64,000 bases of DNA from Octopus vulgaris (Eukaryota), in assembly GCA_951406725.2 (NCBI GenBank), contig OX597827.1, positions 10,912,001 to 10,976,000 of the forward strand. The letters are read 5' to 3'. Positions 961 to 42,330 of the stretch are shown one piece after another. Positions within the stretch are counted from its first letter, which is position 1, and the number at the start of each line of letters is the position of its first letter. The notes under the pieces were generated by a model. The model saw nothing but the letters and a program-made list of their open reading frames with translations, was not told the DNA's origin and did no database searches. Both the position numbers and the translations under genes were made by a program.

Positions 961-1129
961 GTTCAATATCTCTGTCAAGAAAGCATGCTGATGATGATGG
1001 TGATGATGATGATGAGGAGGAGGAGGGGGAGAAATAGAACAATGATGGTACTATTGAAAGAAAATTTTCAAATACTCTCTCCTCGGCAACTGCCCTGAGA
1101 AAATCCCATGATGATGATACAAAGGGTAA

Positions 1130-1453: not shown

Positions 1454-1793
1454 TGATGATAAACTGCACTAAATTTTCACAATTATCATTTAATCCACGC
1501 TACAAGAGTTTTCAAAATACTATGGGCTGGTAACTTCCACTGAAGGCTAAGAATATGCAGAAAAATTCTTGGACATTTCTGTGTTCTTTTAAAGAATCTT
1601 TGCAAATAGATAGTTCCTCGAGTTTAACCTCACTGTATGGCTCCTTGAGCTCATTGCCTTCTAAGGTGGACTTGTGTCAATTGATATCTTGTGTGAGGAC
1701 TTTTATGCAAGGAAACTGTTTACAAGCCTGTTGTGTATATGTGTGCATGCACAAGTGTTTGTGTGTGCATGCATGTGTGTGCGCATGTGTGTT

Positions 1794-1834
<41 letters not shown>

Positions 1835-2330
1835 ATCAAATGTTTGTATGTTCCCTCCTGTTTTTAATTATTTAAATTCTTCCTTTGAGGAAGCAGTTGC
1901 TTTCTAACAATGATGCAAAGCTCCGTTGTTGAAATGTAGATAACAAAAAACAATGTCACATTTTTAAACTTGAGAAAAGTCTTGTATATTTTTACTGTTC
2001 CCCTTACAGATTGTGTTTGTAATGTGTTAGTTAGTTGGTTGATTTCTTTTTCTGAAAATCTTAACTGATTCTGATTTGTCACTCAGGTATTTACTCACAA
2101 AACCAAGAGCACCAATTATTATTATTTGTATAAATATGAATTTATAATCTGGGTACAGAAGCTGGAGGTTTCAAAGCAGTTCTCCATAGTTACCTTCTTT
2201 CTCTTAGATTTGTCAGGGAGCTAGTCACTTCAGCAAGACAAACTGACCCTCTATGACAGTCCATACCTTTTCTTGTCTGTCCCTAATTACAATATTACTT
2301 GATAGATGTTGTGATATATATATTTATGTA

Positions 2331-2741
2331 TACTCTTTTACTCTTTTACTTGTTTCAGTCATATGACTGCGGCCATGCTGGAGCACCGTCTTTAATCGAG
2401 CAACTCGACCCTGGGACTTATTCGTTTGTAAGCCCAATACTTATTCTATCGGTATCTTTTGCCGAACCGCTAAGTAACGGGGACATAAACACACCAGCAT
2501 CGGTTGTCAAGCAATACTAGGGGGACAAACACAAACACACAAACACACACACACATATATATATATACACATATATACGACAGGCTTCTTTTCAGTTTCC
2601 GTCTACAAAATCCACTCACAAGGCTTTGGTCGGCCCGAGGCTATAGTAGAAGAAACTTGCCCAAGGTGCCATGCAGTCGGACTGAACCCGGAACCGTGTG
2701 GTTGGTAAACAAGCTACTTACCACACAGCCACTCTTGCACC
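2331..2741 (-). mobile_element. tRNA-derived SINE, family B (CORE-like, internal TA/TG microsatellite, (GTAAAAGA)n tail)
   Basis: Near-identical to more than 10 other copies in the window; head GG(C/T)GCAGGAGTGGCTGTGTGGTAAG, B box GGTTCAGTCC, CCTTGGGCAAG motif; resembles the Octopus OR-type SINEs. Confidence 0.9.
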
Positions 2742-3357
2742 TATTGTATGTACATCATCATCATCATCCAGTGTTTTAAATCCGGATTTTGTCCCCATTA
2801 ACAGGTATGGCTGGTTCTACCTCAATGCCATAACAACCGAGGTAAGTAGGTGCAGCCCACGTCAATCATTGGGCTGGCTGGTGCCCATTCTCCTTTGCTA
2901 TCATGAGGCTTTTTTGGAGCTGGATCTTCTATGAGCAGCATGCTCTTGCTTACCTCCAGCCTCAGTTTCTAGACATGAGTGGTCCCGAGACCAAGGCCTC
3001 TACAATGATTTTTAAGAAATGCGATGGCAAGCTAACTCAGGAAGGCAGGGACGCTACTCCCTGAGACCCCTTCCAGAGCCGCCCTACATATGTGAATTGC
3101 AAATTCCCCTTAATACCTAGGCCAGTAAATCCTGTAAACCACTGAATTTCTGATGAACCAGCACTAACAATAAACCTGATCTAAATCTAATTAAATATAA
3201 GACAATAATGAACCCTAAACTTATATGTGCATCTATATATTTATATATACACACACATACATATATGTGTATATGCACATGTATGTGGATATATGTGCAC
3301 CTCTGTCTGTATATAAATATATAAATATATATACGTGTGTGTATGTGTATACATATA

Positions 3358-3399
<42 letters not shown>

Positions 3400-3463
3400 C
3401 ATATGCATATTTATATGTGTATATATGTATATGTATATAAGTATATATATATGTGTGTCTGGT

Positions 3464-3513
<50 letters not shown>

Positions 3514-4129
3514 GATGTATATGTGCACTCACACACACACACACACAAATACACACATACGTGTATATTGTTTGCGGTGAAAATCCACTGGTGTGTTGCA
3601 TCTCATGTCAAAAAAAATAAAAAAGAAAAAGAAAAAAAAAGTAAGAGATCAATAAAGTATTATACACACTAGACTGAAATGACCACTGAGGTCAGTATGA
3701 TTGATTGACTATAGCCCTTAAAAGTAGTGTCCAGGCATGACCAAAATCTAATGACGGAAACCAGTCAAAGAATAAAAGCATAAAAGAAGAATCTGAGATA
3801 GCTAAATCATAATGTTTTCATGAAATATTGTTTGAGCTCACCCTCACATATGGTTCAAATTTATTTCTGTTTATTGATTGTGTATGTGATAAGTGGTGCT
3901 ACCATAGCGTGCTATATATTGGGCTATTTACACAATAGGGTGTGGTCTACCAGAACATTGCAACTACAACAACGTGCACTCTATTAGGGATATTTATACA
4001 ACAGGATGTTTAAATACTAAAAAAAAATTTAAAAAATAAATAGAAAAAAACCCCCCAAAAAAACCAAAAAACAAAGAGCTATAGAATTTATCAATGATCA
4101 TGATATAAACAAAATGTATAATGATTCTG

Positions 4130-4164
4130 GGTGATGATGGTGGTGGTGGTGGTGGTGGTGGTAG

Positions 4165-4195
<31 letters not shown>

Positions 4196-4396
4196 GTTGA
4201 TGATGGTGATGATGATTGTGGTGATGGTGATGATGGTGATGATGGTGGTGATGGTGGTGGTGGTGGTGGTGGTAGTGGTGGTGGTGGTGGTGATGGTAAT
4301 GATGATGATGATGGTGGTGGTGGTGGTGGTATTGGTGATGATGATGGTGGTGGTGATGGTGGTGTTGGTGATGGTGACGATGATGGTGATGATGAC

Positions 4397-4432
<36 letters not shown>

Positions 4433-4440
4433 AGTAATGG
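4130..4440. repeat. Compound (GAT)n/(GGT)n microsatellite
   Basis: Directly visible; source of the poly-G/D, poly-P/S and poly-M/V ORFs. Confidence 0.97.
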
Positions 4441-4446
4441 GATTGT

Positions 4447-4841
4447 GTAATCGAACACCGTCAGCCGGATATTGTCATATTGAATAAGAGAGACAAATAC
4501 TGTCAGATTCATTGATGTAGCCATACCAAATGACATGGATGTTGTGAGTAAAGAGGTTGAAAAAAAATCACCGGGTGCTCCAAATTGAAAGTGGAAATGG
4601 CAAGACTGTATTGAATGCGAGAGGGTAATGTGAAAGTGATGCCAGTGGTGATTGGAGTGTTGGGCTCAATCCTATTGAAACTTCAAGACTTCTGTAGGCA
4701 ACTGGAAAGCCCATGCAAAAAGCAGCCTTCTTGAGCACAGCGCACATCTTAAGGAAAGTATTATCTGTCTGAGGTCCTTGTTGTGACCTGACAGATGACT
4801 AAAGACTCCGGTGTATTTTATCCTACTCCGTGTTTTGAAGG
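4447..4841 (+). mobile_element. Dong/R4-clade non-LTR retrotransposon 3' fragment (restriction-like endonuclease domain), frameshifted
   Basis: Pieces translate as VIEHRQPDIVILNKRDK..IDVAIPNDMDVVSKEVEK..KVMPVVIGVLGS (PD..D..K RLE signature); 3' end runs into (TAA)n. Confidence 0.8.
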
Positions 4842-4917
4842 AATAATAATAATAATAATAATAATGATGATGATGATGATGATAATAATAAGAATAATGA
4901 TAATGATGATGATGATG

Positions 4918-4958
<41 letters not shown>

Positions 4959-5043
4959 GATGATGATGATGATAATAATAATAATAATAATAGTAATAAT
5001 GATAATAATAATAATAATGATAATGATGATAATGATGATGATG

Positions 5044-5086
<43 letters not shown>

Positions 5087-5110
5087 TGATGATGATGATG
5101 ATGATAATAA
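4842..5110. repeat. Compound (TAA)n/(TGA)n microsatellite
   Basis: Directly visible. Confidence 0.97.
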
Positions 5111-5459
5111 CAAGAGCACTCAGAGAGAGCAAACCTCTGCCAAGGCAACACCAATGCCCTCTCAATGATTAGCCGGAGATGATTTTTTAAAATGAAAATA
5201 TCTGAAATAAACTCAATGGCTCTCACAAACGAGAATACTAAAAATGAACCCAACTGCTCTCTAAAACTAAGTAAAAAAAATTGGAAAAATAACCCAGAAT
5301 CCTTGTCCGGTACCCGATTGATCCCACTGGTAGACATGGAATGTGAAGGTGGGTGTGCAGTCTGTATTTGTAATGCTGAGTGTGTGCGTCGTCTGCACTG
5401 GGAACAGGGACAGTTTTCTCTATGAAGGCCTTTTTTAGTCTATCCATTGATATAGTGTC

Positions 5460-5920
5460 TTTACAGAAGCTGGCTACCCGCATGGTTCTTGGTCTCAAGA
5501 AGTTGTCTTATGAAGAAAGGCTGAAGACGCTCGACCTTTATTCTCTAGAAAAACGCCGCCGCCGTGGTGATCTCATTCTTGCTCACAACATCATAAGTGG
5601 AAAGTGTAACCTCTCGAAAGAGCTGTTCTTCACTCCTGCTCCAGAGCGTCGGCTGCGGGGTCATTCCGAAAAGCTCTATCTGCGATGATTTCATCTCAAT
5701 CGAAGGAGAGGAGCTTTCTCCGTCCGGGTTGCGGATCCGTGGAATAAGCTGCCGGACGAGATAGTGAAGATGCCGACGACCGCTCGGTTCAAAGTCTCCC
5801 TGGACCACAAGTGGCCGGAACTCTTTACATGAACACCACCCTGTACATAACTCCATGTCCCCCTACATGGCCTTGCTTTTTGCTTTTTGAGCCAAAAAAT
5901 GAACTAACTAACTAACTAAC
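5460..5920 (+). mobile_element. CR1/L2-group LINE, 5'-truncated ORF2 C-terminus, 3' UTR and (AACT)n tail
   Basis: QKLATRMVLGLKKLSYEERLKTLDLYSLEKRRRRGDLI...LRGHSEKL..*..FSVRVADPWNKLP; one in-frame stop at 5686-5688. Confidence 0.9.
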
Positions 5921-6597
5921 AACCATTAAGGTCTATTGTGAAAAATTTATCTGTGTAGGAAAGAAAGCAGAAAGGACCTGCATACAGTGCTGTTAATGGA
6001 GTTTTAACAACATCGTTGTGCACAAAAACGTGAATCCAAGAAGCAAAGCTTCCTTCAAGGCAGAGATAGAAATGCAATTGTCAAATAGGTAAGAGGTTTT
6101 AAACAGGAGCAATATATTCAAAATTGGTAAAACTAAAAATTGTTGAGGATAAATTAAATTTATAATTGTTACTGAATATGTTAGTGTTATTTAATTTCTG
6201 AATGGTTTTGCTGCCATTTGTTTATGTTGTTTGATTTCTTTATCCATCAGTTTCTAGTAAGATAGGGACATGAGTAAAATTAACAATAGAGAAACAAAAA
6301 TAAAACTATGGAAACAGCAATGCAGCCATAACTTATGTGGAAACCCTGAGTGTGCTTTAAAGGGAGATAATCAGAGAAAGACTTGAAAGTGACCTTAAGA
6401 TTGTAATACTTAATGTGAATTAAAGTAAATATTACAAATAATCCAGATTCCTTGTCCGGTACTGGATCAAATCCCTAAATCTAATCAGCCATATTCTGAG
6501 TTCAAATTTTGCTGAGGTCAAATTTAGCCATCCATATTTGCAAAATTGACAAAATAAACGGTCGTATACAAGTTGGTATAATCAACTTGCCTAGGAA

Positions 6598-6828
6598 GGC
6601 GGCGAGCTGGCAGAATCGTTAGCACGCCGGGCGAAATGCTTACCGGTATTTCGTCTGCTGTTATGTTGTGAGTTCAAATTCCGCCGAGGTCAACTTTGCC
6701 TTTCATCCTTTCAGGGTCGATAAATTAAGCACCAGTTACGCACTGGGGTCGATGTAATCGACTTAATACCTATGTCTGTCCTTGTTTGTCCCCTCTATGT
6801 TTAGCCCCTTGTGGGTAATAAAGAAATA
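6598..6828 (+). mobile_element. tRNA-derived SINE, family C
   Basis: Head GGCGGCGAGCTGGCAGAATCG, B box GAGTTCAAATTCC, central GCCTTTCATCCTTTCRGGGTCGATAAATTAAG block; duplicated flank GGTATAATCAACT at 6575-6587 and 6829-6841. Confidence 0.9.
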
Positions 6829-7177
6829 GGTATAATCAACTACACAATCTGTGGTCTTGTGTCAATATTAAACATATAATTCTTTATAATTTTAGCACAA
6901 GCCTCCCAGCAATTTTGAGGGAAGGGGAAAATCAACTCGTACTTATTTCATCATCTCCAAAAGGACAAAAGGTAGTCAAACTCAGCATCAATAGAACCTA
7001 GAACATAATGAGTCAGAAGAAATAGTGCTAAGCATTTTATTTGGTGAGGTACCAATTCTGCCAACTCAGTGTCTTATTTGAAACATTTAATAAAAGAGAT
7101 AGAAAAAAAAAATTCAATAACTGAAGGGAGACAACAATATTAGGTTATAAAAAATCCTTCATTTTAGAAGGCAATGC

Positions 7178-8302: not shown

Positions 8303-8529
8303 TTCTTTACTGCCCACAAGGGGCTAAACACAGAGGGGACAAACAAGGACAGACAAACGGATTAAGTCGATTATATCGACCACAGTGTGTAACTGGTACT
8401 TAATTTATCGACCCCGAAAGGATGAAAGGCTAAGTCGACCTCGGCAGAATTTGAACTCAGAACGTAACAGTAGCTGAAATACCGCTAGGCATTCTGGCCG
8501 GTGTGCTAACGATTCTGCCAGCTCGCCGC
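8303..8529 (-). mobile_element. SINE family C
   Basis: Reverse complement of the 6598-6828 element. Confidence 0.9.
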
Positions 8530-8564
<35 letters not shown>

Positions 8565-8777
8565 ATGTGTGTGTGTGTGTGTGTGTGAATAAAGCCAATG
8601 GTTCAGTTAGGTGCTACTTAAGAGTTTCTTAGTAATTGTGATCCTTTTGGCACTTGAATAATCACAAAATAATGAGAAACTCAGAGTATGAATGAAGTTC
8701 ATTATCGACATAAATAAATGAACTCCACTACATGGAATTATAACAGAAGTTGTATAGCAAACATTGTCTTTAATCTA

Positions 8778-9193
8778 TACTCTCTTTTACTCTTTTACTT
8801 GTTTCAGTCATTTGACTGCGGCCATGCTGGAGCACCGCCTTTAGTCAAGCAAATCGACCCCGGGACTTATTCTTTTGTAAGCCCAGTACTTATTCTATCG
8901 GTCTCTTTTGCTGAACTGCTAAGTGACGGGGACATAAACACACCAGCATCGGTTGTCAAGCAATGCTAGGGGGACAAACACAGACACACAAACACACACA
9001 CACACACATACATATATATACATATATATACATATATACGACAGGCTTCTTTCAGTTTCTGTCTACCAAATCCACTCACAAGGCATTGGTCGGCGCGGGG
9101 CTATAGCAGAAGAGACTTGCCCAAGATGCCACGCAGTGGGACTGAACCAGGAACCATGTGGTTGGTTAGCAAGCTACTTACCACACAGCCACT
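8778..9193 (-). mobile_element. SINE family B
   Basis: Near-identical to other family B copies. Confidence 0.9.
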
Positions 9194-9369
9194 ACTTTAA
9201 ACTTTTATAATATCGCTAGATAACTTCATCTAGAGATAATATTATCTCTAGATAAGATTATCTAGAGATATGTTATCTATGGATAACATACCCAGTGTTT
9301 TCTGTATATCATTTATAATATCACATGTTATCTTAACCCATTTGATCTTTACTTACTTAGACCTAGGTC

Positions 9370-9633
9370 GTTCAAGAGCCCTACACTCATAATGGTGGAT
9401 TTTAATCTGGTTTCCATGGCATATAAGGGATTGGGGTTACAAAACCCCTGCCATGAAAGGGACATAGGTCCATTGTGGGGTCAACTTACCAGTTACTGCT
9501 AAAACTTATTTACTTTTGAAATGAAGCAAGTGTTTTACGCAAGAATGCAATGCACTGCCTAGTTCAGAAATTGAAACAATGGTCTTATTATTGTGAGTAC
9601 AACACCCTAAACCTCTAGGCTACATACCTTCAC
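9370..9633 (-). mobile_element. Old SINE family E, degenerate
   Basis: Head remnant (plus strand TTGTGAGTACAACACCCTAAACCTCTAGGC) similar to the 16.1-16.2 kb copy. Confidence 0.5.
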
Positions 9634-9664
9634 CATTTGCTCTTTGCCGGCTTAGTTATTAGAT

Positions 9665-10082
9665 CAGTGGTTTTCAACCAGGGTTCCGCGGAACCTTAGG
9701 GTTCCACCAGTACAGTCCAGGGGTTCCGCAAGAAGTTACAAAACTGCTAAAATCGGCAGTAATTTTTAATTCTCCTGTGCAGATATGTGTGCATAAGACT
9801 ATTAAATTATTGCACAGGGGTTCCTCGAGCCAGTGGAATGTTTCCTTGGGGTTCCGCTCCAGCAAAAAGTTTGAAAAGCACTGTTCTAGATGATGCTAAG
9901 AAAATACAGTACAGTCCAGGGGTTCCGCAAGAAGTTACAAAACTGCTAAAATCGGCAGTAATTTTTAATTCTCCTGTGCAGATATGTGTGCATAAGACAA
10001 TTAAATTATTGCACAGGGGTTCCTCGAGCCAGTGGAATGTTTCCTTGGGGTTCTGCTCCAGCAAAAAGTTTGAAAAGCACTG
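9665..10082. mobile_element. Non-autonomous hAT (Charlie-like) element with an internal 176-bp duplication
   Basis: TIRs CAGTGGTTTTCAA / TTGAAAAGCACTG; 8-bp TSD TATTAGAT at 9657-9664 and 10083-10090. Confidence 0.9.
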
Positions 10083-10508
10083 TATTAGATGCAAGAAAAT
10101 TGTCTGATGAAAATGATTGGCTTTCATAAACAGCAGGCTTTCACATAAAAATACCACTTACCACATGGTAATGACTTACAACCAAACATCAGTCAATCGT
10201 CCATCATGGTGCTTCAGAGAATGACATTTAAGCGAAAATACATCAAGAAAGTGACTGAAGCTCCTGGAGTGAGAGGAAAAGGAAGACACCAGTTCTCACA
10301 AAATTCTAACTAAAGCCCTGAAGCTTGGCCCAGGAAGATCATCAAGCTTCTTGTATCATTTAATGATAATTTGCTGACAGAAGGTTTGCTAATCATGGAA
10401 AGATTTAACAATTGAATGAATGGTGGGAGTTGATGAAAGAATGGATTAGACAAGTCAACATTTTTGATTCACCCCACAGTATTTTTGGTATACAAGTCAA
10501 TGTAGTAT

Positions 10509-10511
<3 letters not shown>

Positions 10512-10547
<36 letters not shown>

Positions 10548-10875
10548 TTAACGTCCGTATTCCGCGCTAGCACGGGTTGGACGGTTCGACCGGGTTCTGG
10601 GAAGCCAGGGGCTGCACCAGGCTCCAGTCTGATCTGGCAGAGTTTCTACTGCTGGATGCCCTTCCTAACGCCAACCACTCCACGAGTGTAGTGGGTGCTT
10701 TTTACGTGCCACCTGCACAGGTGCCAGGGGGTTCCGGCATCAGCCATGATCGGTTGGAGCTTTTAATGTGCCACCGGCACGAAAGCCAGGCAAGGCGACG
10801 CTGGAAACGGCTACGTTCGGATGGTGCTTTTTATGTGCCACCGGCACAGGAGCCAGTCGGGGCGGGGCTGGCATC
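10512..10875 (-). mobile_element. Short retroelement family D ((GAT)n tail, internal ~50-60-bp tandem units)
   Basis: Sense strand GGCGTTAGGAAGGGCATCCAG...CCGTCCAACCC...GGACGTTAAA(TGA)n; at least 9 copies in the window. Confidence 0.85.
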
Positions 10876-11315
10876 GTAGTGTAAATATGTATTGTAAGTA
10901 TTCAAACATTATCACTGTCTTTCCAAATTCTTCAGCATTTTACATGGAATCTTTGGTCTTTCAAAGTCATCTTGGTGTATAAGTTGACCTACCATTTTAA
11001 GCTGTAAAGTTTGGCCTAAAAAAATCCAACTTGTATGCTGGAAATATGCTAAAAGATTGAATCAGACATAACAGTCCAATAGAGAACTACAGGAATGAAA
11101 ATTCTATCTATTATACAGTGTATGTCAATCAGTTCATTGAACAACTTGGATGGTCACATGTCAAATTTGTTGTGAGAGTCTGTCATTATCACCATCATTA
11201 GATTAATTGCTCAGAAGAGAAGCAAATCTAATATTTTGTAGCCATTGTCCTTCATCTAGTTAAGCAGACATAGCTATGGTCAACCCAGAAATATAATCAG
11301 ACTTATGATTATACC

Positions 11316-11732
11316 TATTTCTTTACTACCCACAAGGGGCTAAACACAGAGGGGATAAACAAGGACAGACAGGATGGATTAAGTCGATTATATTGATCCC
11401 AGTGCATAACTGGTACTTATTTAATTGACCCCGAAAGGATGAAAGGCAAAGTCGACCTCGGCGGAATTTGAACTCAGAATGTACTGACGGATGAAATACC
11501 TATTTCTTTACTACCCACAAGGGGCTAAACACAGAGGGGACAAACAATGACAGACAAACGGATTAAGTCGATTATATCGACCTCAGTGCATTACTGGTAC
11601 TTATTTAATTGACCCCGAAAGGATGAAAGGCAAAGTCGACCCCGGTGGAATTTGAACTCAGAACGTAGTGGCAGACGAAATACCATTAAGCATTTCGCCC
11701 GGGGCACTAACGCTTCTACCAACTCGCCGCCT
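11316..11732 (-). mobile_element. SINE family C, tandem dimer (full copy plus headless copy)
   Basis: Two units joined at GAAATAGGTATTTC (about 11495); TSD TTATGATTATACC at 11303-11315 and 11733-11745. Confidence 0.9.
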
Positions 11733-12443
11733 TTATGATTATACCACAGTGTGGAAGACCTTCTCACTGTCCTTTTCGCTCACAGAAAATTTATCAACTC
11801 AGAAATCAAAGAATATACATCAGAGAAGATGGCATAAGAGACACTGTGCTTAGTTGATATCTTGGTGGATAGACAAGGGGAAAACTGTATAACTGTGTTG
11901 GAAATCTATGTTTTTCAAGGAACCTGTAAAAGATACACTTTCAAGTCAACTATATAATTTGTCCACCAATAATGCATAAGTCTGTAAGGCTTTTTTTTTC
12001 TAACTCAACATCTATACTTGAATAGTGCTTCACTAATAATCGAATCTCAAAGATAGATCAAGTGGGCCAATGCAAAACTGAATGTATATTCTGGTTGTCA
12101 AGTAATCTTTTTGAGTGTTCCTGTACTCAGCTTTTTAATGTTACAAATGTACGTATGTGTATGTATGTATGTATGTATGTATGTATGTTTGTGTATGAGT
12201 GTATGTGTGTCTTTGTCTGTATTCTCATATGCCAATGTAAATCAGTTTAAATAACATGGTGTTTACAATTTAAAGGGACATAACCCAATAAATGAACGTC
12301 AATAAAATAGATAACCCCGAAAGGATGAAATTTGAACTCAGAACATTAAGACAGGTGAAATACCACTAAGCACTAAGCATTTTCCCCGTTTCTGCCAGTT
12401 TGCCACCTTGTTCAGTCTTAATACCATTGAGTTGTTGAGATGG

Positions 12444-12477
<34 letters not shown>

Positions 12478-12479
12478 CA

Positions 12480-12516
<37 letters not shown>

Positions 12517-12548
12517 ATGATGATGATATATATATCTGTATATATATG

Positions 12549-12644
<96 letters not shown>

Positions 12645-12706
12645 TATATATCTTTTTGTATGTATATGTGTATGTGTGTGTGTGTGTGTGTGAGTGTGTG
12701 TGTGTG
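12444..12706. repeat. (TA)n/(TG)n microsatellite
   Basis: Directly visible. Confidence 0.95.
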
Positions 12707-13043
12707 ATAAACTTCCGACACTCGTAGCAATGTTCTTCCTACTGCAGTAATAGTATAGCTGAAATTCCATTCAGTTGATTGCTGCAAGTTGTTTTTTGGT
12801 GAGGCTGATAGAAGCGAGTTGCCTGGCAAGCCTCAGATCCATCAACCTGCAGTGATCCCGAAAGCTTTCTTTTGGATTGTTTCAAGCTGACTGGTTATGT
12901 TATGTGAAGTATACATCTCCAATAGACAGCCATACTCCATGCTGCATCACACTTCTCGATCTGTTTTTAGATGGTGCCTTCCTTCTGTATCTTGATCCAC
13001 ATACAATTTTGCTTTTGGTTTTATAAGTTCTTATATTTTCATA

Positions 13044-13214
13044 GGCGCAGGAGTGGCTGTGTGGTAAGTAGCTTGCTAACCTACCTCATGGTTCCGGGTT
13101 CAGTCCCACTGCGTGGCACCTTGGGCAAGTGTCTTCAGCTATAGCCCCGGGCCGACCAATGCCTTGTGAGTGGATTCGGTAGACGGAAACTGAAAGAAGC
13201 CTGTCGTATATATG

Positions 13215-13249
<35 letters not shown>

Positions 13250-13460
13250 TTGTGTGTCTGTGTTTGTTCCCTAGCATTGCTTGACAACCGATGCTGGTGT
13301 GTTTACGTCCCCGTCACTTAGCGGTTCGGCAAAAAGAGACCGATAGAATAAGTACTGGGCTTACAAAAAGAATAAGTCCCGGGGTCGAGTTGCTCGACTA
13401 AAGGCGGTGTTCCAGCATGGCCGCAGTCAAATGACTGAAACAAGTAAAAGAGTAAAAGAG
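13044..13460 (+). mobile_element. SINE family B
   Basis: Full-length copy, tail runs into (AG)n. Confidence 0.92.
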
Positions 13461-13865
13461 AGAGAGAGAGAGAGATGATATTATTAATAACAGTGTGTGT
13501 GTTTATATACTGATGATACCCTGCTGTTATTTACCCAGAGAATGGAATAAAGAATGGGCCCAGTGGCAGCCATCTTGAACTGAGATGTTATCATACAAAT
13601 TATCTAAAGATGACATTTGAGTCGACAAAGTGCAAAGTAATGGTGTCAAAGGGAAAAAAATTTGAATTGCCGCTTGGGGTTTGCAAGCTGGCAATGGAAA
13701 ATGAATAAGAAACATAGGGATTTCATTAATAATAACAATGAGCTTGTATCTGTTAGAAATAATCTTCATCGTTGTTCACAACAGAGCTGCACAGAAACTT
13801 GGGAACTGTTTGTTAATGTGTAAACAAATTGAATGCAACCAGATAGATACAGTCTAGAAAGCAAA

Positions 13866-14373
13866 TGCATACAGCCATGAATGCATACATGCATACATAC
13901 ATACATGCACGCATGCATACATACATACATACATACATACATACATACATACATACATACATGCATGCATGCATACATACATACATACATACATACATAC
14001 ATGCATGCATGCATGCATGCATACATACATACATACATACGTTCATACATACATGCATACATACATACATACATACATACATGCATACATACATACGTAC
14101 ACACGTACATACATACATACACACATACATACATACATACACACATACATGCATACACATATACATACATACATACACACGTACACATGTACATACATAC
14201 ATACACACATACATACATACATACACACATACATACATACATACATACATAATACATACATACATACATACATACAAACATACATACATGCATACATACA
14301 TAATACATACATGCATACACACACGCATACATACATACACACACATACATACATACATACATACATACACACA

Positions 14374-14404
<31 letters not shown>

Positions 14405-14830
14405 GCACATACACACATACACCCACATATACACACATACATGCACACATACATACACATACATACATACATACATACATACATGTATATGCACATACAC
14501 ACATACACCCACATATATATATATTGATTTGCCTGACACATTCTGCTTGGAGAAAAGAAAAACAACAAAAACAGACATTAAAATGTTGAAGATGGTGTTA
14601 ATGAGAATCACACACACACACACTCACACCCACGCACACACATACATGCACACACCCACGCACACACACACATGCACACACACACAAACACACACATGCA
14701 CACGCACACATACACACACACATGCACACACATGCACACACACACACACACACATCACATTCCACTTGGCTCACAACGACACATACACACACACACACAC
14801 AGACACACACACACAATATATATACATACA
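13866..14830. repeat. (ACAT)n/(AC)n compound microsatellite, about 1 kb
   Basis: Directly visible; source of the MYVC/HTYI ORFs. Confidence 0.97.
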
Positions 14831-15175
14831 GAGTATGGAAGCCCCTCCAATCACTTCAAAGCTGTAAAGTCTAATAGACCTAAAAATATCCTTTCCATTA
14901 CCCTCGAATAATGCATCCAGTGCTAGTCACTCTCTCTCCTCCCCCTCTCTCTACTCCCCTCTCTCTCACGCTCCCCCCTCTCTCTCCTCCCCACCTCTCT
15001 CACTCTCCCCCTCTCTCTCTGTGCATATATATATATATATATATATATACATTTAAGAATAATAAAATTGTACTCTACAAAAGTATAGAGTAACCCATCA
15101 GATTAATGTAAAATTGCTTTTAATACACCTGAAAGTAACACCTGCCCCCCCACACCCACACCCACACGCATGCAA

Positions 15176-15206
<31 letters not shown>

Positions 15207-15382
15207 TACACACACACATCCTGATCTTTGGAAACATGCTGCAATATGTCCCATTCCCAAGAAGAGCATACCCTCTTGAACTCAACTTGTAACATCTCAA
15301 AAAGAATAACGGTAACCATTAAAAAGCACTGTCTTTGAGTGCTCAGGACTTACAGGGCTGGTTACCTGGTTTCCATGGTATT

Positions 15383-15628
15383 TAGAAGTGGATGCTGAAA
15401 AGTTCTTGACTTTGGATAAAAGAAAATACAGGAGGATCAGTTAATTATGATTTTATTCAACATATAGGCGCAGGAGTGGCTGTGTGGTAAGTGACTTGCT
15501 AACCAACCACATGGTTCCGGGATCAGTCCCACTGCGTTGCATCTTGGGCAAGTGTCTTCTACTATAGCCTCGGACCGACCAAAGCCCTGTGAGTGGATTT
15601 GGTCGACAGAAACTGAAAGAAGCCTGTC

Positions 15629-15674
<46 letters not shown>

Positions 15675-16021
15675 ATATGTTTGTGTGTCTGTGTTTGTCC
15701 CCCACCAACATCGCTTGACAACCAATGCTGGTGTGTTTACGTCCCCGTAACTTAGCAGTTCAGCAAAAGCGATCGATAAAATTAGTACTAGGCTTACAAA
15801 GAATAAGTTCTGGGGTCGATTTGCTCGACTCAAGGCAGTGCTCCAGCATGGCCACTGTCAAATGACTGAAACAAGTAAAAGAGTAAAAGAGAGACATTCT
15901 CCTCTCAGACTTACACACTTTTTGCAGCAATAAGCCCTGCAAAAGAATTTGAAAGGTTGGGCCTCCAACCAGGCCTTTTGCAATACCCTTAAAACCAAGA
16001 ACTTTCCAGCACCTCTTCATA
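15383..16021. mobile_element. Mariner-type MITE interrupted by a family B SINE
   Basis: Imperfect TIRs GAAGTGGATGCTGAAAAGTTCTTG / CAAGAACTTTCCAGCACCTCTTC with TA at the outer ends. Confidence 0.65.
15467..15892 (+). mobile_element. SINE family B
   Basis: Full-length copy nested in the MITE. Confidence 0.92.
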
Positions 16022-16029
16022 ACTGAACA

Positions 16030-16215
16030 ATATCACATTTCCCCTCTCTGGAATGCCAGTTCATCTCAGAGTTACTCATTTAACAGCTGAGTAGGCAGAA
16101 GAAATGTGAAATGAAGTATTTGCCTCAAGAACACAAGGAACCACCTGGTATGGGTTTTGAAACTTTGATTTTGCAACTGTGAGTGCAACACCCTAACCAC
16201 TAGACCATGTGCCAT
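16030..16215 (-). mobile_element. Old SINE family E, degenerate
   Basis: Similar to the 1130-1453 and 60305-60555 copies. Confidence 0.55.
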
Positions 16216-16223
16216 CACTGTAA

Positions 16224-16620
16224 TACTCTCTTTTACTCTTTTACTTGTTTCAGTCATTTGACTGCGGCCATACTGGAGCACCGCCTTTAGTCGAGCAACT
16301 TGACCCCGGGACTTATTCTTTGTAAGCCCAGTACTTATTCTATCGGTCTCTTTTGCCGAACCGCTAAGTGACGGGGACGTAAACACACCAGCATCGGTTG
16401 TCAAGCAATGCTAGGGGGACAAACACAGACACACACATACATATATATACATATATACGACAGGCTTCTTTCAGTTTCCGTCTACCAAATCCACTCACAA
16501 GGCATTGGTCGGCCCGGGGCTATAGCAGAAGACACTTGCCCAAGATGCCACGCAGTGGGACTGAACCCGGAACCATGAGGTTGGTTAGCAAGCTACTTAC
16601 CACACAGCCACTACTGCGCC
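16224..16620 (-). mobile_element. SINE family B
   Basis: Full-length copy. Confidence 0.92.
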
Positions 16621-17082
16621 TATGTTAACCATTTATCATAAAATATTCTCTGATACCTTGAATCTTTCTCTCTCTCTCTCTCTTCTTAACGATCATCATT
16701 AAAGGCTTTTATAACACTTGATCAACTGGAGAAGTATTCTCCTTTATTACTTAACATTGTAGGTTACTAGAAATGTATTGCTAGACACAATGTTATAACC
16801 AGTTCAAGGAGGCCAGTGTCAGGATCGAACTCAGAAACAAACCATTCACTGAGTTTTGCCATGGAGAAAATTTCTTGGTGTAGGCAAATGGTGTAAACAC
16901 ATCTAAATCAGCTCACAGCGCCACCCATCCAGACTGTGAGATGCAAGCATTTCAGAGTGGTTATCTCCTCTTCAGTCACAGAAACTGGACAGTGGTGCTG
17001 CAAGCTGATAAGAGAGATGATCTCTCTTATGCTATTCCAGTCATTGTATATCAACTGGTAGTACTAATCAGTGGTATATTAA

Positions 17083-17555
17083 GGCGGTGACCTGGCAGAA
17101 AGGTTAGCACGCCGGGCGAAATGCGTAGCCATATTTCGTCTGCCGTTACGTTCTGAGTTCAAATTCCGCGGGGGTCGACTTTGCCTTTTATCCTTTCGGG
17201 GTCGATAAATTAAGTACCAGTTACGCACTGGGGGCGATGTAATCGACTTGATACCTATGTCTGTCCTTCTTTGTCCCTTCTGTGTTTAGCCCCTTGTGGG
17301 TAATAAAAGAAATAGGTATATTAAGATGGCGAGGTGGCAGAAACGTTAGCACGCCGGGCGAAATGCGTATCCGTATTTTGTCTGCCATAACGTTCTGAGT
17401 TCAAATTCCGCGGAGGTCAACTTTGCCTTTTATCCTTTCGGGGTCGATAAATTAAGTACCAGTTATGCATTGGGGTCGATGTAATTGACTTAATACCTAT
17501 GTCTGTCCTTCTTTGTCCCCTCTGTGTTTGGCCCCTTGTGGGTAGTAAAGAAATA
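17083..17555 (+). mobile_element. Two head-to-tail full-length family C SINEs
   Basis: Units 17083-17314 and 17325-17555; GGTATATTAAG at 17073-17083 and 17315-17325 brackets the first. Confidence 0.9.
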
Positions 17556-17590
17556 GGTATTGCTAGAGTCCAAGAAAATTTTTGTAGCAA

Positions 17591-17995
17591 GGCACAGGAG
17601 TGGCTATGTGGTAAGTAGCTTGTTTACCAACCACATGGTTTCGGGTTCAGTCCCACTGTGTGGCACCTTGGGCAAGTGTCTTCTACTATAGCCTCGGGCT
17701 GACCAAAGCCTTGTGAGTGGATTTGGTAGGCGGAAACTGAAAAGAAGCCCGTCGTATATATGTATATATATATATATATATATGCGTGTGTGTGTTTGTC
17801 CCCCTAGCATTGCTTGACAACCGATGCTGGTGTGTTTACGTCCCCGTTACTTAGCAGTTCGGCAAAAGAGACCGATAGAATAAGTACTGGGCTTACAAAA
17901 GAATAAGTCCCGGGGTCGAGTTGCTCGATTAAAGGCGATGCTCCAGCATGGTCGCAGTCAAATGACTGAAACAAGTAAAAGAGTAAAAGAGAGTA
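17591..17995 (+). mobile_element. SINE family B
   Basis: Full-length copy. Confidence 0.92.
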
Positions 17996-18004
17996 AGTGA
18001 GTCA

Positions 18005-18338
18005 TGTGACAAAAATTTTGAACTCAAGACTCCATCACATTTTGAAATGCTGCCATCGGAAATGTTGCATTCCAAGAAGATTGAGACCAAAGAAGTGGAA
18101 TTTTGAGAACCAATACTTTGCAAGGTGTGTAGAAGATGGACACTTTCTAACAAAGACTGTTTCGATTGATGAAGCTACGTTTAGTTACATGACTTGGCAT
18201 CAGGAAGGACATTGAGCCATAGAAACCCAGTTAAAACAGACCACAGAACCTGCTGTCCAATCCTGAACTTGCCAGCTGCTGTCAAACCGTCCAACCCATG
18301 CCAACAGAGGAGACTCGAAAACGGATGTTAAACGATGA

Positions 18339-18400
<62 letters not shown>

Positions 18401-18419
18401 GTGGTGGTGATGGTGATGG

Positions 18420-18512
<93 letters not shown>

Positions 18513-18521
18513 GGATGATGG

Positions 18522-18601
<80 letters not shown>

Positions 18602-19040
18602 CCACCACAATAGCACCAATTGGGGAAGTAAGAACCCAAATACCATGTCAATTTATCAATTGTTATAGATAAGTTGTGACTTATCACCAGAAGGATTACT
18701 TTGGGCCGTTGCTTTTCGATAGTACAGTGACAGATTCCATTTAATGGAAATTGCTCTGTCAATCTGTCGTGCCAAGCATTCAAGGGGACTTTGAAGATGC
18801 GAAGTTTTATTTTCAGCAAGATGAAGCAGTCCCATACTACTGTTCTACAGTAAGGGCCTCTGTTGATCAGATTTTGGCAATCAGGTGAATTGAACAGAGG
18901 TTCAATGGAATATACTTATTGTTCATCAGGCCAAGCACCAAAAGAAATTTTTTTTATGGAGACACTTAAAAGGTAAAGTTTGTTATACAAAATTGACAAT
19001 GGACAACAAACTGAGGGTAGTCATTGAAAGAGAAAGAAAA
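18005..19040 (+). pseudogene. Decayed Tc1/mariner-superfamily transposase fragment, interrupted by a family D element and (GAT)n
   Basis: EDGHFLTKTVSIDEATF (FSDEATF-like), HNSTNWGSKNP, FYFQQDEAVPYY (FQQDGAPPH-like) and FFLWRHLKGKV occur in DDE-domain order with stops and frameshifts. Confidence 0.75.
18190..18600 (+). mobile_element. Family D 3' fragment with expanded (GAT)n tail (18333-18600)
   Basis: GGCATCAGGAAGG...CCGTCCAACCCATGC...GGATGTTAAAC(GAT)n. Confidence 0.8.
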
Positions 19041-19274
19041 CAAATACCAAATGTGATTCTGGTGTCACAAAACAGTACTTATTACAGTTTGTAATGCGGT
19101 TGGTCTTATGAAAGGCATCCAACTGTAGAAGCCATGCCAAAGCAAATGATGAAGCTTGAATAAGTCCTTTGATTTGTTGGACTCTGTTAATTCATTGAGC
19201 TCATGTCCGCAAGGAAGACACATATTAAGTGATGTTGATGATGATGATGGTGAGGAGGAGGATGAGCATGACAC

Positions 19275-19344
19275 ATATGCATATATATATGTGTGTGTGT
19301 GTACATATATATATATATATACACATATATATATATGTATGTGT

Positions 19345-19419
<75 letters not shown>

Positions 19420-19624
19420 TAAATATATATTATATAATATATATATATATATACATTAATATATATATATATTATATTATATATATATATAATATTATAT
19501 ATATATATATATAGATAGATAGATAGATACATATGTAGGGTATACAATATATAGATGATATATGTGTGTGTGTATGTGTGTGTATATATATGTAAAGAGA
19601 TACAGATAAATAGAGAGATATGTA

Positions 19625-19697
<73 letters not shown>

Positions 19698-20163
19698 ATA
19701 TAAATATGAATATATATAGGCATATACATGTATGCGTGTATGCATGTGTATGCATGTGTATGTATGCGCATGTGTGTATGTGAAAGGAGGCTTCTACTTA
19801 AATTCTATCTACCAAATACCTTTCATATTTTACTTGGTCAACTCGGGGTTATAGTAGTAGACACTTGGTACAGTGTGCTGCACGGCGGCATCGTACCACA
19901 TAACACGTGATTTCAAAGTAAACTTGCTCACCACACAGCCATGCAGTCACATGCTCGTGTTTGTGTGTCGATGCGTGTGCGCGTGCGCATGTGTGTGTGA
20001 GTCTGTGTTTTTCAGTGTGTGAGTAAGTGCGTATGTGCACGAGTGCACGCGCACGCAAGTACAATCACGTGCTTGTGTTTGCGTGTATATGTGAGCGTAT
20101 GTATATATATATATATACATATATATATTTGCGTGACTGTACATCTTTGTCTGCGTATATTAT

Positions 20164-36831: not shown

Positions 36832-37350
36832 AAAATCCTTAATGGTCACTATAGAATCATAAACATTACCATTACCAAGGATTTCTCTTTGTAAATGTAC
36901 ATTCTCAGTAAAGTGGCTGACTTCCTTCTCAAAAGTCACAAAATACTTTAGCCACAGCCACTACAATGCTTAGGTGAGACACACAACAGGTACTGTTCCC
37001 ACATCTAGTAGGGTTCTGCTGCTGTAACACATACAGACTTTCTTGACTGCATCCAATAAATGGCCATCTATCTGACTAGTATGATGTTGCACATGAACAT
37101 ACTGGCCAACAGATGCCCAGGCTCTTTCCCTAAATCAGTGCATCAAATATCTAGATGCTCCATGCATTTTCAAAAATGCATTTAGAAAATCCATATTAAT
37201 GTTTGAGCATTTTGAAAAACATTTAATATTTTTTACACATAATGCAAATATGATTAACATGCATGTGTAGCTGTGTAGTTAAGAAGTTTGCTTTGCAATT
37301 GCATAGTTTTAGCTTCCATTCCAATGGTCAAGATTTGGGTGCAGATATAT

Positions 37351-37610
37351 ATCATCATCATCATCATCATCGTTTAACGTCCGTTTTCCACGCTAGCACG
37401 GGTTGGACAGTTCGACCGGGGTGTGGGAAGCCAGGGGCTGCACCAGGCTCCAGTCTGATCTGGCAGTGTTTCTACAGCTGGATGCCCTTCCTAACGCCAA
37501 CCACTCCACGAGTGTAGTGGGTGCTTTTTACGTGCCACCAGCACAGGTGCCAGGGGAGTCTGGCATCGGCCATGATCGGTTGGTGCTTTTAACGTGCCAC
37601 CGGCACGGAC
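37351..37610 (-). mobile_element. Family D element
   Basis: Near-identical to 10512-10780. Confidence 0.88.
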
Positions 37611-37770
37611 AGGAAATCAATATTAGAAAATTCTTTAGAAAGATATATACGTGTGTAAAATAATTGTTGTATTAAAAATATAGATATGTATAAAAATATT
37701 TATAAATATGTATAAGTATAAATATATAATGTATATGACAGTTTAAAAGTTTTGAATTAAGTTTTTAAAG

Positions 37771-37862
37771 CATCTTACGATCGTTTCACAGAAGTGCTGT
37801 CCCTATAATGAATTCCTATATTGATAAGCATTTATAGACAACTCTTCTGCTCTTCAGAGATA
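37771..37862 (-). ncRNA. Type I hammerhead ribozyme (HHR1)
   Basis: Minus strand UAUCU-CUGAAGA-GCAGAAG[long stem II]CUUCUGU-GAAAC-GAUC-GUA^AGAUG; all core nucleotides present, 10.1-11.1 pair is G-U. Confidence 0.8.
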
Positions 37863-37924
37863 TAAAATTTGAATTTATATATATATAAGACAATCTTTCT
37901 GGTGGTGGAAAGTACTCATGACAG

Positions 37925-38300
37925 TTCCACTTAAAAGCACCTGAACAGTAACATGTAAAAGCACCTGTGCAGTGCCATGTAAAAGTGTCTCTGTGGTGCC
38001 ACATAAAAGTGCCTGTATGTAAAAGCATGTAAAAGCGACCAGACGGCATCATGTAGAAGTGACCATGTGGCATCATAATAAATAAAGAAACCCATGTGGT
38101 GCCCCATAGAAGCACCCATGCAGTATCAAATAAAAGCACCCAGCACACTCTGTAAAGTGGTTAGCCCTAGGAAGAGAATCCAGCCATAGAAACCATGCCA
38201 AGCAGACTGAAGTCTGATGCAGCATCCCAGCTTGCCAGCTCTGGTCAAACCATCCAGCAAATGCCAGCATGGACAATGGATGTTAAATGATGATGATGAT
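37925..38300 (+). mobile_element. Older family D element with degenerate ~20-bp tandem array
   Basis: Repeated CATGTAAAAGCACC-like units, then the family D tail and (GAT)n. Confidence 0.75.
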
Positions 38301-38326
38301 AATGATATATGTGTGTTTGTGTATGT

Positions 38327-38397
<71 letters not shown>

Positions 38398-38508
38398 TTA
38401 AGCAAAAATTTAGATTCAAATAAATATGGTACTTAATTTAGATGTACCAGAATTCTGTATGGTGTTATCCATAAAAATCTGTGGGGTGATTATAATCAAA
38501 ATAAGCAA

Positions 38509-38601
38509 CAATTTGGTACGATCGTTTCGTACTACATCATTTTATTAAATGTTGTAAGTATTACAACAGATTTAAGATGCTGAGTACTCATCAGCCAATT
38601 A
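38509..38601 (-). ncRNA. Type I hammerhead ribozyme (HHR2)
   Basis: Minus strand AAUUGG-CUGAUGA-GUACU[long stem II incl. UGUUGUAA/UUACAACA]AGUAC-GAAAC-GAUC-GUA^CCAAAUU; canonical core and G10.1-C11.1 pair. Confidence 0.85.
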
Positions 38602-38717
38602 TAGAGGTTTTCCATTAATATAAAAATTTTCAAATCAAGTGGCAACATTATAGAGAAGGTAGATATACAGACAAAGATGTGGATTTATATATATATATAT
38701 AACAAGAAGACAATGGA

Positions 38718-38824
38718 GGAAAAATAACAAACAGAAGCGTATCTTTTGTACTAGTAAACCATTATTTGATTAGTAAATAAAGGCTTACTAGTGCAAAAGA
38801 TACACTTCTGTTTGTTATTTTTCC
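38718..38824. repeat. Inverted repeat, 50-bp arms, 7-nt loop
   Basis: GGAAAAATAACAAACAGAAGCGTATCTTTTGTACTAGTAA... pairs with ...TTACTAGTGCAAAAGATACACTTCTGTTTGTTATTTTTCC. Confidence 0.92.
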
Positions 38825-38949
38825 GCCCTTTCCCTCTCATCTATATAAATTAAACTACGGTTACCCACTAAATTACCTGCTGCCATATACCTTTTACCAA
38901 GAATATACCTACTGAGGTAATTTTCCAGAAGTATGTATATATGAATATA

Positions 38950-39590
38950 TGTATGTATATATTTGCGTGTCTGTGTTTGTCCCCCACCATCGCTTGATAA
39001 CTGATGCTGGTGTGTTTCCATCCCGATAACTTAGTGGTTTGGCAAAAGAGACAGATAGAATAAGTTCTAGGTTTACAAAAAATATTACAGTTCTATATCT
39101 AAGAGATGAGGAATCATGTACATTATTTACATTATTTACATTCAACAGATATTTGTCCTCATCTTGTTTGTTGTTAACACAACGTTTTGGCTGATATATC
39201 CTCCAGTTCTTAACCACTACGCCATATGCCCGGGCATATGGCTTAGTGGTTAAGAGCGTGGGCTACTAACCCCAAGATTCCAAGTTTGATTCCAAGCAGT
39301 GACTTGAACAATAATAATAATAATAATACTGATAATAATAACATCGAAAAATACCTTAGGAATGAGAACCCAGGTTCGAAATTTCCCCAAGACACCTGAA
39401 GATGGCTGGAGGGTATATCAGCCAAAATGTTGTGTTAACAACCAACAAGATGAGGATAAATATCCGTTGAATGTAAATAATGTAAATAATGTTACAAAGA
39501 ATAAGTTATGGGGTCGATTTGGTTGACGAAAGGCGGTGCTGCAGCATGGCCACAGTCAAATGACTGGAACAAATAAAAGAGTAAAACAGT
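38950..39590 (+). mobile_element. Family B 3' half, interrupted at about 39080-39492
   Basis: Family B sequence stops at ...GGTTTACAAA and resumes at TTACAAAGAATAAG. Confidence 0.8.
39120..39492 (+). mobile_element. Fold-back element: tRNA-like head plus Penelope-type tail with decayed hammerhead, preceded by an inverted partial copy
   Basis: Arms 39120-39206 and 39406-39492 are inverted; central palindrome 39208-39255; A box TGGCTTAGTGG; GACAC-CTGAAGA-T-GGCTG..CAGCC-AAAAT-GTT-GTGTT. Confidence 0.75.
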
Positions 39591-40190: not shown

Positions 40191-40287
40191 CTGTAATGCT
40201 TTTTCATACTATGTAACTGAAGTGTTAAGTTGTAGGTGTCTTAAGTTGCTAGCAGACAACATGGAGCTATGGAAAACTATCGTTGTT
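40191..40287 (-). other. Candidate spliced non-coding/UTR exon (97 nt)
   Basis: Acceptor TCTTTCTTTTTTCATTTACAG| and donor CAG|GTAAGA on the minus strand; stops in all three frames. Confidence 0.5.
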
Positions 40288-40514
40288 CTGTAAATGAAAA
40301 AAGAAAGATAAGCATTATATTTAGCAAAGTACTTGTAATTACATAATCGAACGTACAATATCTTTTCACATACATGTATAAATTTGGAGTGATTGGGTTT
40401 TACGTATCTATCAGTCTGTCTATCTATCTGTCTATCTGTCTATCTATCTATCTATCTATCTATCTGTCTATCTATCTATCTATCTATCTAACTATATATA
40501 TATATATATATATA

Positions 40515-41169: not shown

Positions 41170-42330
41170 TAGATCTTGCCACCCTTCTCATACAGAAAGA
41201 AATATACTATTCAACATGACAAGATCGATATGCTCAATAGTTACAGACACCAACAGCTGAAGACAACCAACGAATCTCAAGAGACTCCTAATAGAAGCAA
41301 GGTTCACATCAGGGAAAGAAATAAAACGGGTAACAAACTGTGAAGACCCTTGTTGTGGGGACATGTGGAATAATTGAACAAGGAACAACCAAATGGTTCG
41401 AGAATGGGAAAGATTTGAAAGTGAATATAAACATGAATTTCAAAGCAAAGTCTTGTCTACTGTATCATGTCCACTGTGCAATGAGAATTACATTGGAGAA
41501 ACAGGAACTAAACTACAGGTTATACAGGTTACAAACTATGGAGACCCTTGCTGTTGAATATGCGATACTATTGAACGTGGAGGCGCAATGGCTCAGTGGT
41601 TAGGGCAGCGGACTCGCGGTCGTAGGATCGCGGTTTCGATTCCCAGACCGGGCGTTGTGAGTGTTTATTGAGCGAAAACACCTAATGCTCCACGAGGCTC
41701 CGGCAGGGGATGGTGGTGATCCCTGCTGTACTCTTTCACCACAACTTTCTCTCACTCTTACTTCCTGTTTCTGTTGTACCTGTATTTCAAAGGGCCGGCC
41801 TTGTCACTCTCTGTGTCACGCTGAATATCCCCGAGAACTACGTTAAGGGTACACGTGTCTGTGGAGTGCTCAGCCACTTACACGTTAATTTCACGAGCAG
41901 GCTGTTCCGTTGATTCGGATCAACCGGAACCCTCATCGTCGTAACCAACGGAGTGCTTCTTCTTCACTATTGAACAAAGTACAACCAAAAGATTCAACAA
42001 TGTGAAAGAATTGAAAGTAAACGTACACATAAATTATGAAGTAAAATATCTTGTCTTCTACATCATATGCCCACAATGCAATGAGAATTACATTGGAGAA
42101 ACACGGACAAAGCTAACCAATCTTGTAAACATGGATAAACAGAAAATTAAAGATTCCTCTCTTAGGAATATGTTCCATGTGGTAATTCCATGTGGTAAAC
42201 ATCTAGATGTTTGTGTAAGTGGAAAATTTAAAATATACCCCTTTAACAAAATAAATTATGAAAATGATCAACTATAAAAAAGGTAAAAGAATACTGTATA
42301 CGAATTCTAAATCCAAAACGAAACTGTTAA
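41170..42330 (+). pseudogene. Penelope-like element remnant (RT thumb, Cys linker, GIY-YIG endonuclease)
   Basis: [62 protein letters not shown]; frameshifted, with (TA)n on both sides. Confidence 0.85.
41577..41965 (+). mobile_element. SINE family A (tail type 2) inserted in the Penelope remnant
   Basis: 10-bp TSD ACTATTGAAC at 41567-41576 and 41966-41975. Confidence 0.93.

Follow-up and report, generated by a model that had tools for sequence, protein, structure and literature searches.

Two type I hammerhead motifs with an identical palindromic helix III in separate dispersed repeats of an Octopus vulgaris locus

Two hammerhead-like motifs lie 741 nt apart on the minus strand of Octopus vulgaris contig OX597827.1 and contain the same palindromic helix III. 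The locus raises the question of whether the two act together, as a heterodimer that releases a circularizable RNA, or are neighbouring pieces of unrelated repeats. The window analyzed here comprises 64,000 nt (positions 10,912,001 to 10,976,000 of the contig), and all coordinates refer to it. It is repeat-rich animal DNA, with interspersed repeats and low-complexity sequence accounting for about half, and we take its common repeats to be octopus-like. Comparisons with published systems refer to the portions of the cited sources that were available.

Architecture of the hammerhead motifs

The core, fold and pairing of each motif were computed from the sequence. Motif A occupies 38513..38598 on the minus strand, where the 5' strand of a 4-bp helix I (38598-38595) is followed by the core box CUGAUGA (38594-38588), a helix II of 59 nt with 23 predicted pairs, closed by G10.1-C11.1 (38587-38529), the GAAA box (38528-38525) and the palindromic helix III ACGAUCGU (38525-38518). 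A17 is located at 38517 within a GUA triplet, and the predicted cut falls at 38517/38516. Motif B occupies 37771..37862, also on the minus strand, and presents the 5' strand of a 5-bp helix I (37862-37858), the core box CUGAAGA (37857-37851), a helix II of 63 nt, again with 23 predicted pairs (37850-37788), the GAAA box (37787-37784) and a palindrome, ACGAUCGU, identical to that of A (37784-37777). Its A17 is located at 37776, likewise within a GUA triplet, with the predicted cut at 37776/37775. The pair closing helix II in B is a G10.1-U11.1 wobble, and this base is not among the listed differences within the family.

Both motifs contain the CUGANGA and GAAA boxes, A15.1-U16.1 and an NUH-type triplet (GUA). 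Three helices surround the core in each, with helix I open, and in the monomer helix III consists of 2 bp and a 4-nt loop. By sequence and predicted fold, both qualify as true type I hammerhead motifs, in agreement with the first-pass annotation, which had reported two minus-strand type I hammerheads 741 nt apart with the same cuts and an identical palindromic stem III. That annotation had also called them intact, a description that holds for the cores, which are complete, and is weakened by the wobble pair in B and by an A copy that is short of ~13-15 nt 3' of helix I.

The occurrence of the motifs was compared with 200 block-wise dinucleotide shuffles of the window. A type I descriptor found three motifs in the 64-kb window (besides A and B, one at 16975) versus 0.03 per shuffled window. 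The sole sequence common to A and B is a 12-nt box, with no longer direct repeat, and the GAAACGATCGT box occurred twice in the window and in 0 of the 200 shuffles. Motifs A and B are far beyond chance expectation.

The third type I hammerhead-like motif (16934-16981, minus strand) has CUGAAGA at 16975, a helix I of 6 bp, a helix II of 4 bp with G10.1-U11.1 and a near-palindromic helix III, AUGCUUGCAU. Its triplet is of the GUC type, with UC at 16941-16940. It is unrelated to A and B.

A search with the Rfam hammerhead model, which the first-pass annotation had put forward as a check, recovered neither A nor B. The scan of the window gave no hammerhead match at the gathering score, and none of the 21 matches obtained at E up to 10 in the region 37000-39200 was a hammerhead. 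The long helix II is the likely cause.

Repeat families A and B and their probable origin

Contigs of four public runs (three organisms, coded) were aligned to 37620-38930 at 80% likeness. In these alignments, motif A lies within a repeat copy of ~290 nt (family A; 38398..38687, minus strand, both ends approximate), and motif B within a copy of ~190 nt (family B; 37684..37875, minus strand, with an approximate, AT-rich 3' end). In run X1, summed depth was 197,000-677,000 over A and 43,000-95,000 over B, versus 42.5 for the contig identical to the locus. In run X4, it was 181,000-425,000 over A and 28,000-66,000 over B, versus 14.5 for a likely orthologous piece. A was ~5-fold more abundant than B in both runs. 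Contig depth being different from copy number, the depth ratios, roughly 5,000-29,000 for A and 1,000-4,500 for B, are to be read as orders of magnitude only. At ~10^3 to 10^4, they place both motifs in common dispersed repeats, one part of the outcome that the first-pass annotation had named as speaking against a functional pair.

Run X14 (organism E) gave a different picture. Depth was 4-139 in the four bins that cover motif A with its 3' flank (38456-38631), 431 and 2,541 in the bins at the two edges of the A segment, and 3,200-7,000 over B; the locus-level depth of ~12 for this run is an assumption from the shallowest listed pieces. Family A is nearly absent from X14, which keeps B, and the two families thus have separate histories.

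Contigs of other copies span the entire long helix II without gaps (records 1, 6, 18 and 26), indicating that it is a family trait. Elsewhere, family A extends upstream beyond 38687 and contains ~13-15 extra nt at 38510, and the local A copy is therefore 5'-truncated and carries a deletion. The local B copy starts ~18 nt upstream of its core, beside a TA run; five listed family B pieces end at 37873-37875, two of which then run on for 65 and 128 nt with other letters. TA runs are present at both ends of the A-bearing segment and at the 5' end of the B-bearing segment.

The missing ~13-15 nt of A were considered as an extension of helix I and discarded, as 291 of 1000 shuffles paired equally well. 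In run X4, a joint that connects 38511 with 38686 across 6 intervening letters (depth 270.7) may represent an inverted family A copy, typical of Penelope insertions.

Most of the spacer between the two copies is filled by an old, diverged copy of the window's commonest interspersed repeat, which we take to be SINE-like (37890..38310, plus strand), identified by contig depth and by 75-77% identity over ~177 nt to other copies in the window. A (TG)n-(TC)n-(TA)n microsatellite (38311..38397, strandless) lies between the tail of this copy and repeat A, and is the likely insertion target of A. From cut to cut, the 741-nt stretch (37776..38516, minus strand) consists to ~70% of SINE-like repeat, microsatellite and a short TA run, and the helix I strands at its two ends are mismatched.

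Just upstream of repeat A, a 158-nt near-perfect foldback (38693-38850) was observed, with an MFE of -81.7 kcal/mol and a z of -15.5. It is a TA-flanked low-copy repeat (depth ~900-1,600 versus 42.5 in X1) and is MITE-like or microRNA-precursor-like, its Rfam microRNA matches all being below the gathering score.

Pfam scans of 148 and 149 stop-to-stop frames, drawn from 393 candidates from which ~100 short ones, mostly in the first 25 kb, were left out, revealed no host gene above the curated cut-off. A crude splice-site scan of the window for host exons yielded two weak candidates only, both far from the locus. These scans thus gave no host exon or intron for the intron-cutting alternative of the first-pass annotation. 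By eye, a strong splice donor is visible at ~40191 with possible acceptors upstream (about 40192-40290, minus strand); this candidate is absent from the list of the crude exon scan, and its long form contains a stop in all three frames. If 40192-40290 is an exon, the hammerheads would sit in sense within an intron.

Taken with their architecture, these repeats suggest a likely origin from Penelope-like elements. A and B are motifs of two high-copy families, whose local copies are likely 5'-truncated Penelope-like 3' ends that were likely inserted independently at TA runs. They would have inserted on either side of the SINE-like repeat, which we infer to be the older. In a parent element, the RNA would be cut by the motif close to the 3' end. 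Neither A nor B has RT or GIY-YIG sequence next to it, so that likeness of architecture is what suggests the Penelope origin.

This likeness is extensive. Penelope pseudo-LTR hammerheads share with A and B the CUGANGA/GAAA/NUH core, a helix I of 4-5 bp, an enlarged helix II, a small palindromic helix III and AU-rich flanks (PMC4209133). As with A and B, a genome holds several such families with thousands of dispersed copies, mostly single, which have been attributed to truncation of the elements (PMC4209133). Two of the examples, from Marsupenaeus and Saccoglossus(2), further agree with A and B in their A17 and in lacking an additional base after position 9. The unpaired base between positions 9 and 10.1 that A and B lack is likewise missing from 2 of 56 published rows, one of them Penelope-linked (PMC4209133). 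A and B differ from the Penelope pseudo-LTR type in the size of helix II, 59-63 nt versus about 23 nt at most in the published examples (PMC4209133), and in that no RT-EN ORF was found beside these copies.

A tblastn search with Penelope-type proteins gave matches only at 41243-42274 on the plus strand, and none beside A or B. The only Penelope protein remnant found is therefore 2.6-3.6 kb from the motifs and on the opposite strand. Two partial copies, at 41243-41515 and 41954-42330 on the plus strand, make up this remnant; they are 78% identical, are separated by an interspersed repeat, and correspond to the C-terminal GIY-YIG end, now decayed, of a Penelope-like element. In an exhaustive protein search, its translation had 123 relatives at E up to 0.001, and 11 of the 13 relatives scanned matched GIY-YIG, 7 of them also RVT_1. 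The cysteine linker upstream belongs to the Neptune or Nematis type. With the GIY-YIG piece as query, a word-indexed protein search gave no match, no Penelope relatives were found in viral contigs, and no intact hammerhead was found downstream of the remnant at 41.2-42.3 kb. In the Octopus vulgaris genome, Penelope-like elements are reported to make up 6.83% of the sequence, in 190 families (PMC13282606 supplement).

The more conservative proposal of the first-pass annotation, two independent Penelope remnants in TA-rich DNA, is borne out as regards the separate repeats, the TA flanks and the architecture, while the tie to a Penelope ORF is one that we infer.

The main rival to a Penelope origin is a non-coding, retrozyme-like one, which would leave the verdict on the pair unchanged. 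A and B would then be independent non-autonomous hammerhead elements, either solo retrozyme monomers or SINE-like stubs, dependent on Penelope enzymes and not forming a pair. Metazoan non-LTR retrozymes resemble A and B in their type I hammerheads with a 2-bp helix III and a tetraloop, and in being non-coding, low in GC and high in copy number (PMC7229834, bioRxiv 10.64898/2026.07.22.740005). This helix III and tetraloop are usual in invertebrate retrozymes, which cleave as monomers (PMC7229834, PMC7761336), and retrozyme monomers are dispersed and pseudo-LTR derived (bioRxiv 10.64898/2026.07.22.740005). The lack of an adjacent ORF and the stop of five listed B pieces within 37873-37875, just upstream of the motif, would also fit. 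We nevertheless consider this origin unlikely. Retrozymes are tandem 150-450-nt units bounded by one ribozyme (PMC7229834), whereas A and B are unrelated motifs at a locus without a tandem repeat. Family A runs on upstream of its loose end at 38687, two listed B pieces extend for 65 and 128 nt, and the helix II of retrozyme hammerheads, at 4 bp and with a short loop, is unlike that of A and B (PMC4209133).

Proximity, pairing and the 741-nt RNA

Under uniform placement, roughly 1-12 same-strand A-B pairs within 741 nt are expected per genome, a rough estimate that takes as inputs 8,500-20,000 A copies, 1,000-4,500 B copies and 2.8 Gb, the size that the PMC13282606 supplement implies for the octopus genome. 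Such a pair is therefore rare yet expected somewhere. Three motifs placed randomly in 64 kb yield such a pair ~3.5% of the time. An insertion bias toward TA runs has been reported for Neptune and Naiad elements (PMC8557442); were it shared by A and B, which has to be assumed, it would raise the rate of A-B neighbours. The first-pass annotation had regarded proximity at chance level as a refutation of a functional pair, and this is largely what was found: both motifs are in common repeats, and the rough expectation leaves room for such neighbours.

We take A and B to be putative ribozymes; any cleavage would be slow and would proceed either in the monomer or in a dimer of the same family. Active folds of the monomers are minor in the model, at 1.6e-4 for A and 1e-3 for B, the model containing no core tertiary energy. 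The monomer route would involve weak cleavage with the 2-bp helix III and its GAUC loop, for which the published evidence is mixed: invertebrate retrozyme motifs with a 2-bp helix III cleave alone (PMC7229834, PMC7761336), and Penelope minimal motifs do not (PMC4209133). In the dimer route, a same-family double hammerhead would be held together by an 8-bp palindromic duplex and swapped helix I strands, and could arise in tandem transcripts or in trans. The predicted energies of the same-family dimers, -43.4 and -52.2 kcal/mol, are below those of two free monomers, -39.2 and -43.6 kcal/mol, consistent with cleavage as homodimers.

At this locus, any 741-nt product would be an incidental one, since a read-through transcript would have to be cut twice, separately at each motif. 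That A and B, as chance neighbours, do cut a minus-strand read-through transcript separately seems to us quite unlikely. In its favour, the two complete cores share a strand, and the end chemistry of hammerheads is established. A look-up of RNA sources for the locus listed none, which speaks neither for nor against expression. One contig from run X12 corresponds to 37653-37804 without difference, a weak hint that carries no strand information and comes from a run guessed to be RNA; it crosses the predicted cut of B by 28 nt, under the 31-nt bridging rule. Set against these points, folding of 38690-37690, with core tertiary energy unmodelled, gave at most 0.002 for the junction pairs of A and at most 0.001 for helix I of B. 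Motifs of the Penelope type that have been published showed no activity as monomers and little as dimers (PMC4209133), 8 of 9 tested Xenopus retrozyme dimers were uncleaved (bioRxiv 10.64898/2026.07.22.740005), and ~70% of the product would be SINE-like repeat and microsatellite. The ribozyme could not self-ligate the 741-nt product, because helix I would be mismatched after ligation, and in contrast to a retrozyme, a circle from this locus would hold no complete ribozyme.

A more far-reaching version, which we regard as a long shot, posits for this genome thousands to tens of thousands of long-helix-II hammerheads, overlooked by Rfam and by published descriptors, in at least two families with one palindrome. 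Sense pairs within one transcript, as at this locus, would cut separately and give rise, via two unrelated ribozymes and a host ligase, to a stable 741-nt circle that contains a SINE-like repeat. Through the common palindrome, members of one family could also be sequestered by the other in inactive heterodimers.

It is very improbable that A and B were parts of one composite element, originally ~220-240 nt apart, into which the SINE-like repeat was later inserted. Subtraction of the ~520 nt of SINE-like repeat and microsatellite would bring the spacing into the retrozyme size range, and the common palindrome could reflect a shared ancestor. However, A exceeds B ~5-fold in X1 and X4 and is nearly absent from X14, in which B and the SINE-like repeat are present. 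No A-to-B joint was found among the 15 joints listed (223 more exist), the contigs breaking at the microsatellite. The relatives of A, as listed pieces and not nearest relatives, are 84-94% identical to it, versus ~81% for the SINE-like copy, which fits A as the later arrival.

The weakest reading is a selected functional pair, in which a heterodimeric double hammerhead of A and B releases a unit-length circle. The double hammerheads of newt satellite 2 and ASBVd have a palindromic helix III that forms an 8-bp duplex between copies, as would A and B (PMC4209133, PMC3088659), and the A-B palindromes are able to form such a duplex, with a predicted energy of -10.0 kcal/mol. Reasoning from the geometry of the junction, positions 2.1 to 15.1 are contributed by one partner and 16.1, 17 and 1.1 by the other, so that helix I must form across partners. 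Dimers of the newt satellite 2 and ASBVd kind accordingly need interchangeable helix I strands, a property of A-A and B-B and not of A-B: the number of contiguous junction pairs in the cross helix I is 4 for A-A and 5 for B-B, and 0 for both A-B and B-A. An A-B dimer would thus be catalytically inactive, with paired palindromes and neither junction closed, and the circle-releasing heterodimer suggested by the first-pass annotation fails on its topology. Despite identical 8-nt palindromes on the same strand 741 nt apart, the functional pair is rejected on topology and repeat evidence, the latter comprising families unlike in abundance and distribution and a spacer of repeat debris; in addition, palindrome-to-palindrome pairing of A with B had a probability of 0.0 in the fold of a ~1-kb transcript. 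Belonging to different abundant repeat families, and with helix I strands unable to cross-pair, A and B are likely chance neighbours.

The long helix II and its relatives

The ~60-nt helix II, a length shared by other copies of the families, is the one unusual trait of A and B; the pairing itself is ordinary. Among the 56 published hammerhead rows, the longest helix II is about 23 nt, within a descriptor that limits length (PMC4209133), and a helix II of 6-8 bp has been called long (PMC13725137, PMC4209133). In one survey of Penelope elements, the core-motif search was restricted to core boxes 7-17 nt apart (PMC8557442). In the literature covered, which was incomplete and included few subscription papers, neither hammerheads of cephalopod repeats nor a ~60-nt helix II in retroelements were found to be described.

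Viral and metagenome contigs were scanned with a pattern consisting of the core, a gap of 40-70 nt and the palindrome. The scan gave 53 matches at 52 loci, of which one (L023) had helices I and II of at least 4 bp. This yield is about what chance gives, and no relatives were gained from the scan. The L023 match (L023:1501-1583) has a helix I of 5 bp, a helix II of 5 bp after an extra base, and the same palindrome, in a contig of 50% GC; it is possible that it represents a real long-helix-II type I hammerhead.

The flag HHR_half_core has been assigned to eight Naiad families, those of Octopus and Euprymna among them, in which the second core box lies 35-50 nt away on either side (PMC8557442). 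Some of these flags might reflect hammerheads that have a long helix or are permuted. The published Octopus Naiad consensus was considered as a source of A and B and rejected, its 3' end being dissimilar by eye. The palindrome box had 0 matches in the available supplement of PMC8557442, in which line breaks could hide one.

Since the long-helix-II motifs of this locus escape Rfam, ribozymes may be undercounted in cephalopod-like genomes.
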